A DNA stretch of 64,000 nt from Lachnospiraceae bacterium. Its GTDB lineage: Bacteria > Bacillota > Clostridia > Lachnospirales > Lachnospiraceae. Position 1 is the stretch's first letter; every line of letters begins with the position of its first letter. Location of the stretch: contig SVEK01000010.1 in assembly GCA_015057405.1 (NCBI GenBank), positions 5,538 through 69,537 on the forward strand. The letters are read 5' to 3'. The position numbers and the translations under genes are program-made. A model generated the notes under the pieces. The model worked only from the letters and a program-made list of their open reading frames with translations, was not told where the DNA came from and ran no database searches. This document shows positions 192-55,509 of the stretch, piece after piece.

Positions 192-339
192 CATTCCAAG
201 TAGCAGAGACTCTCCGGTTATACTGGGGCGTTTTTTCTATGGAAATATATATTAAATTAGATAGAGCATATTTTACTATTTATTTTAGGTGAAAAGTTTG
301 ATATAATAACACATATTGTGAAAAAAGGCAAGGTGAATT

Positions 340-741
340 ATGATAGAAAATATTACAAGATTAACAAATGAAAGATTTCCAGAACCTATAGGAGCATATT
401 CTAATGGTTTATCGATTCCAATTGCAGACAGACAACTGGTGGTGTTGACAGGTCAAATTGCAACTAATTCAAAAGGCGAGGTTCAATTTAAAAATGACCC
501 AGGAAAGCAAACAGAATATATTTTTGAGAACATTAGGTCTTTATTGCTTGAGGCAGGAGGAGATATTAAAAATATTATACGTGTTGTGATTTATGTCACA
601 GATATGTCTTATTTTTCCAGTGTTTCACCAGTTAGAAATATGTATTTAAAAGATACAAAACCTGTAAGTACACTTGTTGAGGTAAATAAATTAGCAGTAG
701 AGGGTTGTAAAGTGGAGATAGAAGCCACTGCAATTATATAG
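340..741 (+). CDS. Rid (YjgF/YER057c/UK114) family protein, non-canonical
   Basis: PIGAYS, TGQI and VEIEATA motifs. KPVSTLVEV stands where RidA has PARSCVEV. Confidence 0.85.
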   Translation: MIENITRLTNERFPEPIGAYSNGLSIPIADRQLVVLTGQIATNSKGEVQFKNDPGKQTEYIFENIRSLLLEAGGDIKNIIRVVIYVTDMSYFSSVSPVRNMYLKDTKPVSTLVEVNKLAVEGCKVEIEATAII

Positions 742-749
742 GTGGTTGT

Positions 750-1682
750 ATGGAATTACTGAAGAAGGCATTTAAATACGGGAAGTGGATTGTTTCCATA
801 GTTGCAGCTATTTTTGCTGTAATGGAATTTTTGGAGTATTTTGGAGTTTTTAGTTTTAGCGGGTTTGGTATAAAGGGAATAATATCATTATTTGTAATAT
901 CTATTATTGGTATAATTTGCAAAATTATTTATGAAAAAAGTCAAACCCCTAATGATGCACAAAATAGGATAAATGAAATTAATGAAAAAATTACAGATCG
1001 TATAGGTGTTTTGAAAAGTAGTGAAAAGCCAGACAAGGATTTAATGGATTCACAGCATTCAATAGCATTGTTTGAAAGAATGGATATATTAGATTACTCA
1101 ACAAATGACTATATGAGCTATAGGATTATAAACGGGAAAAATGATTCGAAGAGCAATAGCCCATTTTTGAAATATAAAGAATCTACTGATTCAAAAACAT
1201 CTGCAAAAGAACTAATAATAAAAGCATATGATTTGAAAACGGGAAAGGAATTAAAGGTTGAGTTTGAGGAAAAAGAGCAAAAAGTGTATGTTCATAAATT
1301 CAAAATAATGTTCACTACGCCTTTAAAACCACAGCAGGAGTTTTCGATTATTTATTTTATTAAAATACCAAACGAATTAAGTCAGTTGAGTGATAATGAA
1401 GAGATGATGAGCGTTTCACTTAATAGATTCGAAAAGAAGATAGAAAAACTGCGCTTTGGTGTATATTTAGATTTTATTCCTGTGCAGATTGAGACTTTTT
1501 TGAGAAATCAGAATAGTGAAGCGGAAATAATAGATTCTATTCCTGAACTTGATGAAACAGGAGAAGTAGCTATCGATGAACGATTTAAGATATTTATGGA
1601 TAATATTTCTATAAAGAGTAAAATACAGTTGGATGTTGAAAAACCTAAAAAAGAAACCTATGTAATATATTATAGAAAGTAG
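750..1682 (+). CDS. Hypothetical protein with two N-terminal TM helices and a beta-rich soluble domain
   Basis: 310-aa ORF, RBS-like AGGTGG upstream, two hydrophobic stretches in the first ~60 aa, 8-bp gaps to both neighbours. Confidence 0.8.
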   Translation: MELLKKAFKYGKWIVSIVAAIFAVMEFLEYFGVFSFSGFGIKGIISLFVISIIGIICKIIYEKSQTPNDAQNRINEINEKITDRIGVLKSSEKPDKDLMDSQHSIALFERMDILDYSTNDYMSYRIINGKNDSKSNSPFLKYKESTDSKTSAKELIIKAYDLKTGKELKVEFEEKEQKVYVHKFKIMFTTPLKPQQEFSIIYFIKIPNELSQLSDNEEMMSVSLNRFEKKIEKLRFGVYLDFIPVQIETFLRNQNSEAEIIDSIPELDETGEVAIDERFKIFMDNISIKSKIQLDVEKPKKETYVIYYRK

Positions 1683-1690
1683 AGATTGTT

Positions 1691-2431
1691 ATGAAAAGAA
1701 TAGCATTAGTGACAGGTGGAACAAGTGGTTTGGGCTTACAGTTAGTAAGAGATTTAGTGTCTGCAAATTATAAGGTGTATTCATTATCTCGTAAAGAAGA
1801 TGCTATAAACCAGTTGAAGAAAGAATTACCGGAAGTTGTTTGTTTATGTGGTGATGTTTCTGATATGAGCGTGTTGATGAATACATTTGAAACTATTGAA
1901 CAAAACGATGGGAAATTAGATGTGTTAATAAATAATGCGGGAATTATTTATCCGGGTGGAGTTGAAAAGTTAGAAGCGGATGAGTGGAACAAAATGTTTG
2001 CTGTAAATGTTAATGGTATTTTTTACTCGGTTAAAACTTTTTTGCCTTTGTTGAAAAAATCAGAAAATGCCAATGTTATTAATGTATCGTCTATTTCATC
2101 ACAAATGACAGGTAGTTCGATTGCATATTCGGCTTGTAAGGCGGCTGTAGATATGATGACAAAGTCGATGGCGAAAGAACTTGCATCATATAGAATCAGA
2201 GTTAATAGTGTGAATCCAGGCATTATCAGTACCGGGTTTCAGATTCATAATGAATTGATGACTGAAAAAGAATATCCAGAGTTTTTAAATGAGATTAGCA
2301 AAACATATCCGCTTGGAATTGGAGAAGCTAAGGACGTTTCTAACTTGATTTGCTTTTTGATATCAGAAGATGCAAAGTGGATAACAGGGAGCAATTATAT
2401 TATTGATGGTGGAAGAAGCATAAATATTTAA
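1691..2431 (+). CDS. Classical SDR family NAD(P)-dependent oxidoreductase
   Basis: TGGTSGLG, NNAG, SS..YSACK, VNPG and DGG motifs are all intact. Confidence 0.92.
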   Translation: MKRIALVTGGTSGLGLQLVRDLVSANYKVYSLSRKEDAINQLKKELPEVVCLCGDVSDMSVLMNTFETIEQNDGKLDVLINNAGIIYPGGVEKLEADEWNKMFAVNVNGIFYSVKTFLPLLKKSENANVINVSSISSQMTGSSIAYSACKAAVDMMTKSMAKELASYRIRVNSVNPGIISTGFQIHNELMTEKEYPEFLNEISKTYPLGIGEAKDVSNLICFLISEDAKWITGSNYIIDGGRSINI

Positions 2432-2655: not shown

Positions 2656-3108
2656 ATGATAAAAGTATTATTCATCTGCCACGGCAACATCTGCCGCAGT
2701 CCTCTGGCGGAATTTGTTTTTAAAGACATGGTGGCAAAAAGAGGGATTGCAGATTTGTTTGAAATAGCATCTGCTGCAACAAGTATGGAAGAATTAGGAA
2801 ATGACATTCATTACGGAACCAGAGGGGTTTTGATGAAGTATAAGATTCCTTTTTCGAGAAGAAGGGCTAGACAAATCACGAGACTTGATTATAATGAATA
2901 TGATTACCTGATTGGTATGGATACTGCGAATATACGCAATATGAACCGTACCTTTGGAGGAGATCCGGAAGGGAAGATATACAAGCTGTTAACCTTTGCC
3001 GGTAGTGGCAGGGATGTGGCGGACCCTTGGTATACGGGAGATTTTGAGACTACATATAGGGACGTGTGTGAAGGTCTTGAAGGATTTTTAGAGGAGTTAG
3101 GATATTAA
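2656..3108 (+). CDS. Low molecular weight protein-tyrosine phosphatase
   Basis: CHGNICRS P-loop and DPWY motif. Confidence 0.95.
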   Translation: MIKVLFICHGNICRSPLAEFVFKDMVAKRGIADLFEIASAATSMEELGNDIHYGTRGVLMKYKIPFSRRRARQITRLDYNEYDYLIGMDTANIRNMNRTFGGDPEGKIYKLLTFAGSGRDVADPWYTGDFETTYRDVCEGLEGFLEELGY

Positions 3109-3110
3109 TT

Positions 3111-4511
3111 ATGAATAGTGTTATGAGTAAGTTTTTTGGTGATAAGGCATTTTATAAGAAAGTGCTTTTACTTGTTGTGCCTATTATTGTGCAGAATGCA
3201 ATTACTAACTTTGTTAGTATGCTTGATAATATTATGGTTGGTAGGATTGGTAACGAGCAGATGTCCGGTGTTGCCATTGTTAACCAGCTTATGTTTGTGT
3301 GTTATTTGTGCATGTTCGGTGCCATATCCGGTGCTGGAATTTTTACTGCGCAGTTTTTTGGAAAATCCGATAATGAGGGCGTTAGATATACTTTTAGATT
3401 CAAGCTTATTATTTGTTCTGTTATTGTATTGATTACAATAGCGCTTATGGTGTTGTTTGGAGAAGAACTGATTCAGCTTTATTTGCAGGGAAAGCAGGAT
3501 GGAAGTGACGTTGAGGCGGCGCTCCGGTATGGCAAAAAGTATATGAGTATTATGCTTTTGGGGTTGATACCGTGGATGCTTTCGCAGGTGTATGCAGGAA
3601 CCTTGAGAGACTGTGGTAAAACGTTTGTGCCTATGGTGGCGGGAGTTGTTGCTGTATTTGTTAATCTTGGAATTAATTATGTTCTCATATATGGTAAGTT
3701 TGGCTTTCCTGTTCTTGGTGTTGCAGGTGCAGCTATTGGTACGGTGGTAGCCCGATATCTTGAGGCTATTATTGTAATTTGGTGGACGCATTATAAGAAA
3801 AAAGAAAATGAATATATTATCGGAGTTTACAGTTCGCTGCGGATTCCGATTGACCTCACTGTTAATATAATCAAGAAGGGTACTCCGCTTTTTATCAATG
3901 AAACCCTATGGGCAGCAGGGATGGCTATGCTTGTCCAGTGCTATTCAATCAGAGGAATGAAAGTAGTTGCGGCATTGAATATGTGTAATACGGTTGTGAA
4001 TGTATTTAATGTTGTATTTTTTGCAATGGGAGATGCAGTAGCGATTTTTGTTGGGCAGCTTCTTGGTGCAGGAAAATTAAAAGAAGCAAAAGATATGGCT
4101 CGTAAGCTGATTGTATTTGGTGTTTGTATGGCTTCTGCGGTTATGTTTATTGTGCTTGCTTTGGCAAATTTATTCCCGTTGTTATACAATTCTGATGATT
4201 ATACGCGGTCTGTTGCGGCAAAGTTTATTATGATATCGGCAATTTTTATGCCGCAGGTTGCGTTTCTTCATTGTGCGTATTTTGCAATCCGGTCAGGCGG
4301 AAATACGGTTGTAACGTTTTTATTTGACAGTGTGTTTGTATGGCTGATAACTATTCCGGTTGCGTATATTTTAAGCCGGTTTACCGGATTGGATGTGCTT
4401 GCAATATATATGTGTGTTCAGTTTGCTGATTCTATCAAATGTATTGTTGCATTTATTCTTTTGAAAAAGGGGATTTGGCTTAATAATATCGTCGATAAGA
4501 AGAAAGAATAA
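3111..4511 (+). CDS. MATE family efflux transporter
   Basis: ~12 TM segments, two-repeat MATE architecture, GVAGAAIGT motif. Confidence 0.9.
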   Translation: MNSVMSKFFGDKAFYKKVLLLVVPIIVQNAITNFVSMLDNIMVGRIGNEQMSGVAIVNQLMFVCYLCMFGAISGAGIFTAQFFGKSDNEGVRYTFRFKLIICSVIVLITIALMVLFGEELIQLYLQGKQDGSDVEAALRYGKKYMSIMLLGLIPWMLSQVYAGTLRDCGKTFVPMVAGVVAVFVNLGINYVLIYGKFGFPVLGVAGAAIGTVVARYLEAIIVIWWTHYKKKENEYIIGVYSSLRIPIDLTVNIIKKGTPLFINETLWAAGMAMLVQCYSIRGMKVVAALNMCNTVVNVFNVVFFAMGDAVAIFVGQLLGAGKLKEAKDMARKLIVFGVCMASAVMFIVLALANLFPLLYNSDDYTRSVAAKFIMISAIFMPQVAFLHCAYFAIRSGGNTVVTFLFDSVFVWLITIPVAYILSRFTGLDVLAIYMCVQFADSIKCIVAFILLKKGIWLNNIVDKKKE

Positions 4512-53891: not shown

Positions 53892-54275
53892 ATGATGATG
53901 AAAGTAATATCAACTGAAAAAGCGCCGGCAGCAATCGGACCGTATTCACAGGGGATTATATCCGGAGGATTATTTTTTGCTTCAGGACAAATTCCGATTA
54001 ATCCTGAAACGGGAGCTATAGAAGGAAGCACAATTAAAGAGCAGGCGGAACGTGTAATGCGCAATATTGGGGAACTTCTTAAGGCAGCAGGATGTGATTA
54101 TACAGATGTTGTTAAAACAAGTTGTTTTATAGCAGATATGGATGATTTTTCAGCCTTTAATGAAGTGTATGCAGAATACTTTACCGGTAAACCGGCAAGA
54201 AGCTGCGTAGCAGTTAAGACACTTCCGAAAAATGTTTTGTGCGAAGTGGAAGTAATTGCAGAAGTAAATGATTAA
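53892..54275 (+). CDS. ridA: RidA enamine/imine deaminase
   Basis: APAAIGPYSQG and PARSCV with the catalytic Arg. Overlaps the ilvA start. Confidence 0.93.
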   Translation: MMMKVISTEKAPAAIGPYSQGIISGGLFFASGQIPINPETGAIEGSTIKEQAERVMRNIGELLKAAGCDYTDVVKTSCFIADMDDFSAFNEVYAEYFTGKPARSCVAVKTLPKNVLCEVEVIAEVND

Positions 54276-55509
54276 TCCGGAGGAACAAAAAGTGGAAAAG
54301 TTAACGATAGAAATGTTTGAAGAAGCAACTGAAAAGGTTAATAAAGTTGTTCTTCCGACTCCGCTTGTATATAGTGATTTTTTTAGCAGACAATGTGGCA
54401 ATAAGGTGTATTTAAAACCTGAAAATATTCAGCATACCGGTGCCTACAAGATTAGAGGAGCTTACTATAAAATAAGTACTCTTCCCAAAAATGAAAGGGA
54501 AAAAGGTCTTATTACAGCGTCAGCAGGGAATCATGCACAGGGGGTTGCTTATGCGGCTCAAAGATATGGTGTAAAAGCAGTTATTGTTATGCCAACATCT
54601 ACGCCTCTTATGAAAGTGAACAGAACCAAAAGTTACGGTGCTGAGGTAATCCTTTACGGAGATGTGTATGATGACGCTTGTAACGAAGCTTACAGACTTG
54701 CACAAGAGAACGGTTATACATTTATTCATCCGTTTAATGATATAGAGGTATGTGCCGGTCAAGGTACAATTGCCATGGAGATAATAAAGGAACTTCCTAC
54801 GGTGGATTATATTCTTGTACCAATTGGTGGCGGAGGCCTGGCAACCGGTGTCAGTACTTTGGTCAAATTGCTTAATCCGGGGATTAAAGTTATAGGGGTT
54901 GAGCCGGCGGGAGCAAATTGTATGCAACAGTCGATAAAAGAAGACAAAGTAGTTACTCTTACCACTGCACAGACGATAGCGGATGGTACTGCAGTAAAGA
55001 CCCCTGGAGATATAACATTCGAATATGTTAAACGTAATATTGACGAAATCATTACCGTTGAAGATGACGAACTGATAGAAGCTTATCTTGATATGGTAGA
55101 GAATCATAAAATGGTATGTGAAAATTCAGGTCTCTTAACGATAGCTGCGTTGAAGCACCTTACTTTCAAAGAAAAAAAGGTTGTGTCAATATTAAGCGGA
55201 GGAAATATGGACATAATAACAATGTCCTCCATGATTCAGCACGGACTTATTCAGCGCGGGAGAATATTTACCGTGTCTGTGCTTTTGCCTGATAAACCGG
55301 GACAGCTTGCCCAGGTGTCAGAAGTTATTGCCGGGGAACAGGGCAATGTAGTTAAACTTGAGCATAATCAGTTTGTAAGTATTAACAGGAATGCAGCAGT
55401 GGAGTTAAGAATTACTTTGGAATGTTTCGGTATGGACCACAGGGACACAATAATGAACAGGTTGGAAATCGAAGGGTATCGTCCTAAGCTTGTTCGTACC
55501 AATTTGTAA
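54268..55509 (+). CDS. ilvA: Threonine ammonia-lyase with C-terminal ACT domain
   Basis: TGAYKIRGA, SAGNHAQG, PIGGGGL and LPDKPGQL motifs. Confidence 0.92.
   Translation: MINPEEQKVEKLTIEMFEEATEKVNKVVLPTPLVYSDFFSRQCGNKVYLKPENIQHTGAYKIRGAYYKISTLPKNEREKGLITASAGNHAQGVAYAAQRYGVKAVIVMPTSTPLMKVNRTKSYGAEVILYGDVYDDACNEAYRLAQENGYTFIHPFNDIEVCAGQGTIAMEIIKELPTVDYILVPIGGGGLATGVSTLVKLLNPGIKVIGVEPAGANCMQQSIKEDKVVTLTTAQTIADGTAVKTPGDITFEYVKRNIDEIITVEDDELIEAYLDMVENHKMVCENSGLLTIAALKHLTFKEKKVVSILSGGNMDIITMSSMIQHGLIQRGRIFTVSVLLPDKPGQLAQVSEVIAGEQGNVVKLEHNQFVSINRNAAVELRITLECFGMDHRDTIMNRLEIEGYRPKLVRTNL

Follow-up and report, generated by a model that had tools for sequence, protein, structure and literature searches.

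We analysed a stretch of 64,000 nucleotides from a Lachnospiraceae bacterium (the window in the following; its position 1 is base 5538 of contig SVEK01000010.1, which is 81.9 kb long), and this report concerns a compact three-gene cassette near its left end. The cassette encodes a Rid-family protein, a membrane protein and a short-chain dehydrogenase/reductase (SDR), from open reading frames (ORFs) 1 to 3, and is a candidate for a categorically new system of putative function. The features of the locus are listed below (TM, transmembrane; LMW-PTP, low-molecular-weight protein tyrosine phosphatase; the type of support is given between brackets).

1-191, + strand: remnant of a tyrosine recombinase, 3' end; the complete ORF (118 aa) has its start 166 bases before the window
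212-238, + strand: terminator-like hairpin with T-run that closes the integrase remnant (consensus scan)
299-307, + strand: extended -10 promoter element TGATATAAT (sequence)
340-741, + strand: ORF1, Ser-type (Arg-less) Rid family protein, 133 aa (PF01042)
750-1682, + strand: ORF2, middle protein, 310 aa (no family match)
750-1022, + strand: 2-TM module and connecting helix of ORF2, residues 1-91 (AlphaFold2 helices, hydrophobic segments)
1023-1682, + strand: β-sandwich domain of ORF2, of an unannotated family, putative ligand sensor (AlphaFold2, Foldseek)
1691-2431, + strand: ORF3, classical SDR oxidoreductase, 246 aa (adh_short)
2439-2478, + strand: intrinsic terminator of the operon, hairpin 2439-2474 followed by a U-run (folding)
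2479-2655, no strand: junction between island and core genome; the LMW-PTP gene starts at 2656

An initial annotation of this DNA had pictured three same-strand ORFs with 8-bp gaps, an extended -10 element at about 299-307, a terminator after the last gene and an AT-rich composition, and all of this is borne out: the gaps are exactly 8 bases each, the promoter element is a perfect TGnTATAAT, the terminator hairpin stands out against shuffled sequences (-17.9 kcal/mol, z = -4.3), and the GC content of the cassette (31.6% versus 36.9% for the genome) ranks among the lowest 4% of values for genome stretches of 2.1 kb. The -35 region is weak, and because of it a two-hexamer consensus scan did not report positions 299-307; several homologous cassettes are likewise preceded by this -10 element. 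Its own promoter and terminator make the cassette an autonomous transcription unit.

The Rid fold of ORF1 is clear from PF01042 (6.8e-25, 87.8 bits versus a cut-off of 27.3). The protein falls short of the curated RidA model TIGR00004 (76.5, cut-off 106.25), stays under the cut-off of the NCBIfam enamine-deaminase model as well, and has weak similarity to the RutC model (score 41, cut-off 169). A housekeeping RidA that has the catalytic Arg is encoded in the same window (53892-54275) and served as internal control: the catalytic site reads KPVST in the cassette Rid versus KPARS in the housekeeping RidA, which agrees with the Arg-less Rid that had been proposed. The catalytic Arg is Arg105 in Salmonella RidA. 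Ser occupies its position in 13 of the 13 system-linked Rids, one of which adjoins a gene for a TIR-β fusion (see below), and all of them carry the private signature P[VA]STLVEV..GC. To our knowledge, what Arg-less Rid subfamilies do is a question that Rid biology has yet to answer.

ORF3 was correctly called as an SDR and is of the classical type (adh_short, 2.6e-52), with intact motifs TGxxxGxG (G9-G15) and NNAG (N81-G84) and an intact tetrad N106/S133/Y146/K150, all of which are invariant across the system SDRs. It cannot be assigned to FabG or to another named SDR: the best NCBIfam equivalog match reaches 187 bits versus a cut-off of 215, and 250 of 250 matches stay under their own cut-offs.

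The middle protein, annotated initially as a 2-TM protein of no recognised family, has no match in Pfam, NCBIfam, PADLOC or PHROGs, and its broad family profile has no sequence match in the PDB. The AlphaFold2 model, built from 14 homologs (mean predicted local distance difference test score 85.7; >90 over residues 100-310), starts with long helices at residues 2-30 and 41-81, which together with hydrophobicity bear out the two N-terminal TM segments, and continues with an all-β domain of ~220 aa (the β-domain in the following). In Foldseek, the closest folds to the β-domain were the N-terminal β-domain of M1 aminopeptidases and of leukotriene A4 hydrolase (LTA4H) and a subunit of the oligosaccharyltransferase (OST) complex, chain E of human OST entries (E ~1e-8; template-modelling scores 0.35-0.47, normalised to full length). 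The Lys-rich N-terminus and a basic stretch after the second TM helix point to an N-in/C-in topology, which suggests that the β-domain is cytoplasmic. Polar residues that are invariant in all classes of β-domain proteins are D100, H103, R110, D112, R125, N131, E144, E209 and R226 (numbering of the window ORF2), and several of the invariant residues alternate along neighbouring strands. The β-domain may bind a small, probably anionic, metabolite via its invariant Arg, Asp, His, Asn and Glu residues.

The three genes belong together. The initial annotation had proposed to search for them jointly in other genomes, and they recurred in the same order and with tiny gaps in 6 of 6 other independent contexts that were traced, within unrelated surroundings (identities to the window proteins: Rid 66-80%, SDR 59-68%, ORF2 48-63%). 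Counting the window, the order is kept in 7 of 7 distinct close contexts, and the gene triplet is a conserved module. This conserved order rules out a chance juxtaposition of three unrelated accessory genes. Membership in a catalogued defence system was considered alongside, since the cassette Rid matches a component model of PD-T4-2, PD-T4-2_B, at 2.3e-10. That system reportedly goes back to Vassallo et al. in 2022. The model has a Rid-like C-terminal region, which the cassette Rid matches weakly, and because the housekeeping RidA of the window scores far better on it (6e-37), we read the match as one to the generic Rid fold and rejected the Rid as a member of PD-T4-2. According to PMC10952713, PD-T4-2 is a system with DUF262 and HEPN. 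Both domains are absent from the cassette proteins, and we give almost no credence to either chance or PD-T4-2.

The enzymes seem to have been inherited along with the middle protein. Pairwise identities of the β-domain protein, the SDR and the Rid correlate across systems (rho 0.88 and 0.76), which fits co-inheritance, though it is not independent of host relatedness. In a tree of 12 system SDRs and the 29 best generic SDR matches from related genomes, the system SDRs all lie on one side of a branch versus the generic ones (Shimodaira-Hasegawa-like approximate likelihood-ratio test, SH-aLRT, 80), and their subclades (94 and 99) mirror the β-domain classes. An SDR gene is also found directly 3' of genes for β-domain proteins that are only ~30-38% identical and have other N-terminal modules (loci L020, L021, L022, L029 and L033, listed below). 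In these comparisons, the SDR and the Arg-less Rid form dedicated lineages that travel with the β-domain.

As regards the genomic site, the cassette indeed lies right after an integrase stop codon, as had been noted, and this adjacency stands; the integrase gene itself does not, as only a 118-aa ORF is left that covers positions 103-170 of the 172-position Phage_integrase profile (E 3.7e-13) and is a dead C-terminal remnant. With the integrase a remnant and the left end beyond the contig start, the insertion does not classify as an intact integrative and conjugative or mobilizable element. Two genomes of the same genus (G408 and G403) share the LMW-PTP and MATE genes (2656-4511) and nothing upstream of ~2650, a synteny break that supports a right island boundary at ~2650. 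In G408, the closest of the same-genus genomes, a 332-aa Tn916-type integrase ORF (L045:2054-3049, - strand) reaches to within 5 bp of the LMW-PTP gene; besides an Integrase_DNA domain it has no more than the first third of a catalytic domain. Because this ORF abuts the very gene where the window island ends, the site upstream of the LMW-PTP gene is an integration hotspot, and the cassette sits there in a decayed insertion.

The distribution of the family is very sporadic. ORF2 has no match in 400 genomes of the bacterial family, and the broad β-family profile has none in 11 other same-genus genomes nor in 398 of the class. The close family is also missing from the other species-representative genomes (185,579 searched), and at 90% identity the clusters of ORF2 number only 25 in a set of 5.8 billion proteins. 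We count the sporadic distribution, the low GC content and the synteny break at the hotspot in favour of a horizontally mobile operon.

The neighbours of the cassette and of its homologues, which the initial annotation had suggested to record, were compared to the catalogue of defence models PADLOC-DB v2 and to domain families:

Window contig, upstream of the cassette: DUF3427/ResIII helicase, matching the Type IV methyl-directed restriction enzyme mREase_IV (2e-164), and a NUDIX protein, matching the candidate system PDC-S07 (5e-49)
L013: HEC-05 (1e-225)
L012: PDC-S37/Hhe-type helicase (2e-119) and a TIR-domain gene
L008-L011: NERD proteins, a pair of helix-turn-helix (HTH) protein and M78 peptidase, a metallo-β-lactamase-fold protein and AAA_14/DUF4143
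L004-L007: SNF2 helicase and nSTAND/AAA proteins

Further neighbours among the contexts of the β family are PifA-like/PDC-S20 and a cyclase of the cyclic-oligonucleotide-based antiphage signalling system (CBASS). Known defence genes recur in independent contexts, the hallmark of a defence island that we applied, and the contexts of the cassette are defence islands rather than catabolic clusters. On co-occurrence as on context, the initial interpretation came through the checks that it had set itself.

A profile search of 1.84 billion representatives recovered 118 β-domain proteins. Their N-terminal modules vary: 2-TM (in many), SIR2_2, TIR-like, DUF676 α/β-hydrolase, DUF4145 and HTH/SARP-type. 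A small-molecule sensor would be expected to look like this: one domain that stays the same and keeps a conserved polar site, joined to killing or DNA-binding outputs that are exchanged. The SIR2_2 part of the relatives has its best PADLOC match in the SIR2 part of ThsA (positions 11-237 of 478), and judged by this match the SIR2-β relatives would be ThsA proteins in which the SLOG sensor has been replaced by the β-domain. The partner genes of the more distant relatives with an SDR are (FAD, flavin adenine dinucleotide):

L020: 2TM-β protein, ~38% β-domain identity; β, SDR, DeoC-family aldolase
L021: SIR2-β protein, on an element with integrase and Prim-Pol; β, SDR, LysE, and on the opposite strand RraA-like, OMPdecase-fold and Rid
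L022-L024: 517-aa relative, 46 contigs; Rid, OMPdecase-fold, RraA-like, β, SDR, LysE, with a CBASS cyclase adjoining
L029 (metagenome): Rid, RraA-like, FAD oxidase, Rid, SIR2-β, SDR
L033 (metagenome): β, SDR, LysE, Rid, OMPdecase-fold, RraA-like

Other classes have other partners. A conserved TIR-β trio occurs in Ruminococcus, Christensenella and other metagenome-assembled genomes of Clostridia (L048-L053), where the TIR-β gene is followed by genes for an S-adenosylmethionine (SAM) methyltransferase and a DHQS-II-like protein, which matches only the C-terminal half of 3-dehydroquinate synthase II; one of these loci (L048) additionally has a Ser-type Rid and LuxS. A winged-HTH (wHTH)-β fusion is encoded on plasmid NZ_CP071310.1 of Actinarchaeum halophilum (L062:6311-9152); the genes behind it encode a class I SAM methyltransferase and a protein of the VOC family. 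Because this plasmid is haloarchaeal, the β-domain occurs in archaea too. A RelE/ParE pair adjoins this locus. The L020 system is flanked (L020:3488-6917) by an agr-type quorum-sensing locus, made up of AgrB, a 50-aa ORF, a response regulator of the LytTR type and a histidine kinase, and in addition by genes for an RHS-repeat protein and Tox-REase-7. In SIR2-β loci without SDR from soil metagenomes (L025:4436-5434, L030:2004-2714 and L034:706-1446), a convergent NUDIX gene with an NrtR winged-helix regulator was seen; members of the NUDIX-NrtR regulator family respond to ADP-ribose.

The LysE-type exporters that follow the SDR in L021, L022 and L033 raise the question whether the systems make, export or signal with a small molecule that the cell secretes, be it for chemical defence, as an antimetabolite or as a quorum-type signal, and whether the β-domain protein is the receptor of this molecule; LuxS next to one TIR-β system and the agr-type locus next to L020 can be read in the same way. 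The window cassette, however, has no exporter, the predicted topology places the β-domain in the cytoplasm, and two enzymes are few for a biosynthetic pathway, and therefore we consider such a role very unlikely.

The Rid-SDR pair is also found by itself. Among the 398 genomes of the class, all of which lack the β-domain, one (G582, 0.8 Mb) encodes a Ser-type Rid (40% identity), followed after 16 bp by an SDR that is 49% identical to that of the window, and the pair has its own TGATATAAT. It resides in a mini-island of 1.6 kb (L106:5548-7256) that contains only the promoter, the Ser-type Rid and the system-type SDR. On one side it is bounded by tRNA-Leu(CAA), on the other by a direct repeat, 55 nt long, of the 3' half of this tRNA. 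The β-less pair rules out that the Ser-type Rid is exclusive to β-domain proteins, and because it stands alone in G582, the Rid-SDR pair is a mobile enzyme unit in its own right. Compared to it, cassettes of the window type have the β gene located between the two genes of the pair.

This mini-island is an argument for reading the cassette as stress or detoxification cargo, in which the Ser-type Rid and the SDR would turn a reactive amine, imine or aldehyde into a harmless alcohol or ketone, much like RutC with YdfG in pyrimidine catabolism, and the 2-TM β-domain protein would be a membrane sensor or accessory for this compound and not a killer. The LysE exporters, aldolases, decarboxylase-fold protein, FAD oxidase and VOC/glyoxalase genes of the relatives fit such a role, as do the HTH-β fusions, which resemble one-component regulators, and the weak similarity of the cassette Rid to RutC. 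This similarity, though, remains far below the RutC cut-off, the neighbours are defence genes rather than catabolic operons, the distribution is extremely sporadic, and in relatives the β-domain is fused to ThsA-like SIR2 and to TIR modules, which are cell-killing or NAD-depleting effectors (NAD, nicotinamide adenine dinucleotide). On balance we hold a detoxification cargo to be unlikely.

The presence of the systems on integrative elements and plasmids, the tight translational coupling with a putative toxin gene flanked by enzyme genes, and the RelE/ParE toxin-antitoxin pair beside the haloarchaeal system would also suit a metabolite-gated addiction module, similar to a toxin-antitoxin system. 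The enzymes would then keep making an antidote that holds the 2-TM toxin closed, and loss of the element or shut-off of the host would let the ligand decay and the toxin fire; the island would be stabilised, with phage defence as an optional by-product. For an obligate toxin-antidote pair, however, the occurrence of the enzyme pair alone and of β-domain proteins without these enzymes is unexpected, and the toxicity of the 2-TM β-domain protein is putative only. An addiction module is in our opinion quite unlikely.

The initial annotation had not recognised the combination as any named system, and the search of PADLOC-DB v2 agrees: no model matches the middle protein or the SDR, and none of the catalogued systems is matched by any component. 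A description of the gene combination was not found either in the full-text literature searched, which includes only a minority of subscription-journal papers. The cassette nevertheless shares aspects with known systems. In Thoeris, type I ThsA consists of SIR2 and SLOG, and type II ThsA of 2TM and Macro with the TIR protein ThsB. The Thoeris architecture, a killing module (2TM or SIR2) with a cytoplasmic small-molecule sensor and adjacently encoded ligand enzymes, is like that of the cassette, and the SIR2 part of the distant relatives is nearest to the SIR2 region of ThsA; however, the three cassette proteins have no TIR, SLOG or Macro match, so that there is no TIR synthase, the sensor would be an unrelated β-sandwich, with an SDR and an Arg-less Rid as partners. 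CBASS Cap15 (S-2TMβ) and the Pycsar 2TM effectors have a presumed membrane-disrupting output. They resemble the predicted build of the middle protein, with a pair of TM helices at the N-terminus and, behind it, a β-rich domain that binds a ligand in the cytoplasm. They differ in that the operon contains no cyclase, neither CD-NTase nor pyrimidine cyclase, that the middle protein has no PADLOC effector match, and that its ~220-aa β-domain resembles the M1-peptidase N-domain fold. These closest analogues (ThsA, Cap15 and the Pycsar 2-TM effectors) would be alike in working but are not homologous; the sensor and the enzymes of the cassette are unrelated to them. With RutC plus YdfG/RutE (the Rut pathway) and with RidA, the cassette shares a Rid-family protein and an SDR-type reductase acting on a reactive intermediate; it differs in the Ser that replaces the catalytic Arg, the scores far under the cut-offs, the defence-island location and the sporadic family.

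We conclude, with a probability of about 0.5, that the cassette is an autonomous, mobile three-gene operon in a defence island at an integration hotspot, and that it most likely encodes an undescribed small-molecule-triggered defence of the abortive-infection type. The module of enzyme, sensor and membrane effector that had been suggested initially is supported, except that the sensor is probably the β-domain of the 2-TM protein and not a Rid trimer; the Rid and the SDR are more likely an enzyme pair that acts on the ligand. The SDR would carry out an NAD(P)-dependent oxidation or reduction of a metabolite, and the Ser-type Rid would handle an imine or enamine without an α-carboxylate, so that together they may make, convert or remove the metabolite in a two-step oxidative deamination or its reverse; a substrate without α-carboxylate is proposed because the SDR tetrad is intact and the carboxylate-binding Arg is lost from the Rid. 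In relatives, the aldolase, decarboxylase, methyltransferase and DHQS-II-like enzymes could share the metabolite-processing task. On infection the level of the ligand would shift and be read by the β-domain, upon which the 2-TM module would oligomerise and permeabilise the membrane, with cell death preceding phage release. The ligand binding, the topology, the chemistry and the abortive outcome are steps of this mechanism that we infer. Going further, the cassette may be the minimal form of a new immune superfamily of bacteria and haloarchaea, in which metabolic-type enzymes handle a non-nucleotide messenger (possibly a keto sugar, an amino sugar or a compound derived from an amine) and a β-domain reader switches TIR, SIR2, 2-TM or transcriptional outputs; we regard this as possible and put it forward tentatively.

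Several observations count against a defence role or narrow it. The role is deduced from guilt by association, and no family member was found in IMG/VR. The Ser-type Rid and the SDR occur in G582 without β-domain, and therefore the enzymes may have a stand-alone role, e.g. in detoxification. Conversely, the SIR2-β loci L025, L030, L031 and L034 are without SDR, OMPdecase-fold and RraA-like genes lie upstream in some, and the TIR-β and wHTH-β loci use other enzymes, so that none of the enzymes is found in every system. The LysE exporters and the HTH-β fusions are reminiscent of ordinary metabolite pathways with a one-component regulator. Finally, the support for the clade of all system SDRs is moderate (80), in a tree without the actinobacterial outgroups.

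If the proposed defence function is true, the family would extend immune signalling chemistry beyond the known nucleotide and NAD-derived messengers, it would define a new type of domain for sensing ligands, which in the course of evolution has been joined to outputs of TIR, SIR2, membrane and DNA-binding type, and it would provide the first biological role for an Arg-less Rid subfamily. If it is a detoxification module instead, it would remain to be explained why metabolic enzymes are so closely tied to the effector domains of classical immunity. A 2.1-kb cassette with its own promoter and terminator is easily testable, and in the SIR2-fused relatives NADase activity can serve as a simple read-out in the search for ligands.

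Some minor observations concern the surroundings. In the island of the cassette, the helicase gene is followed 10 bp later by the NUDIX gene (L002:3-2519), and the two resemble a helicase-NUDIX pair. A run of five small same-strand ORFs (L002:2808-5287), with zinc-ribbon motifs, DUF4177 and TM segments, separates the NUDIX gene from the integrase remnant. Elsewhere in the window, the gene encoding the housekeeping RidA is located just upstream of a threonine dehydratase gene, with an overlap of 8 bases (the pair spans 53892-55509), which is the classical RidA-IlvA pairing.

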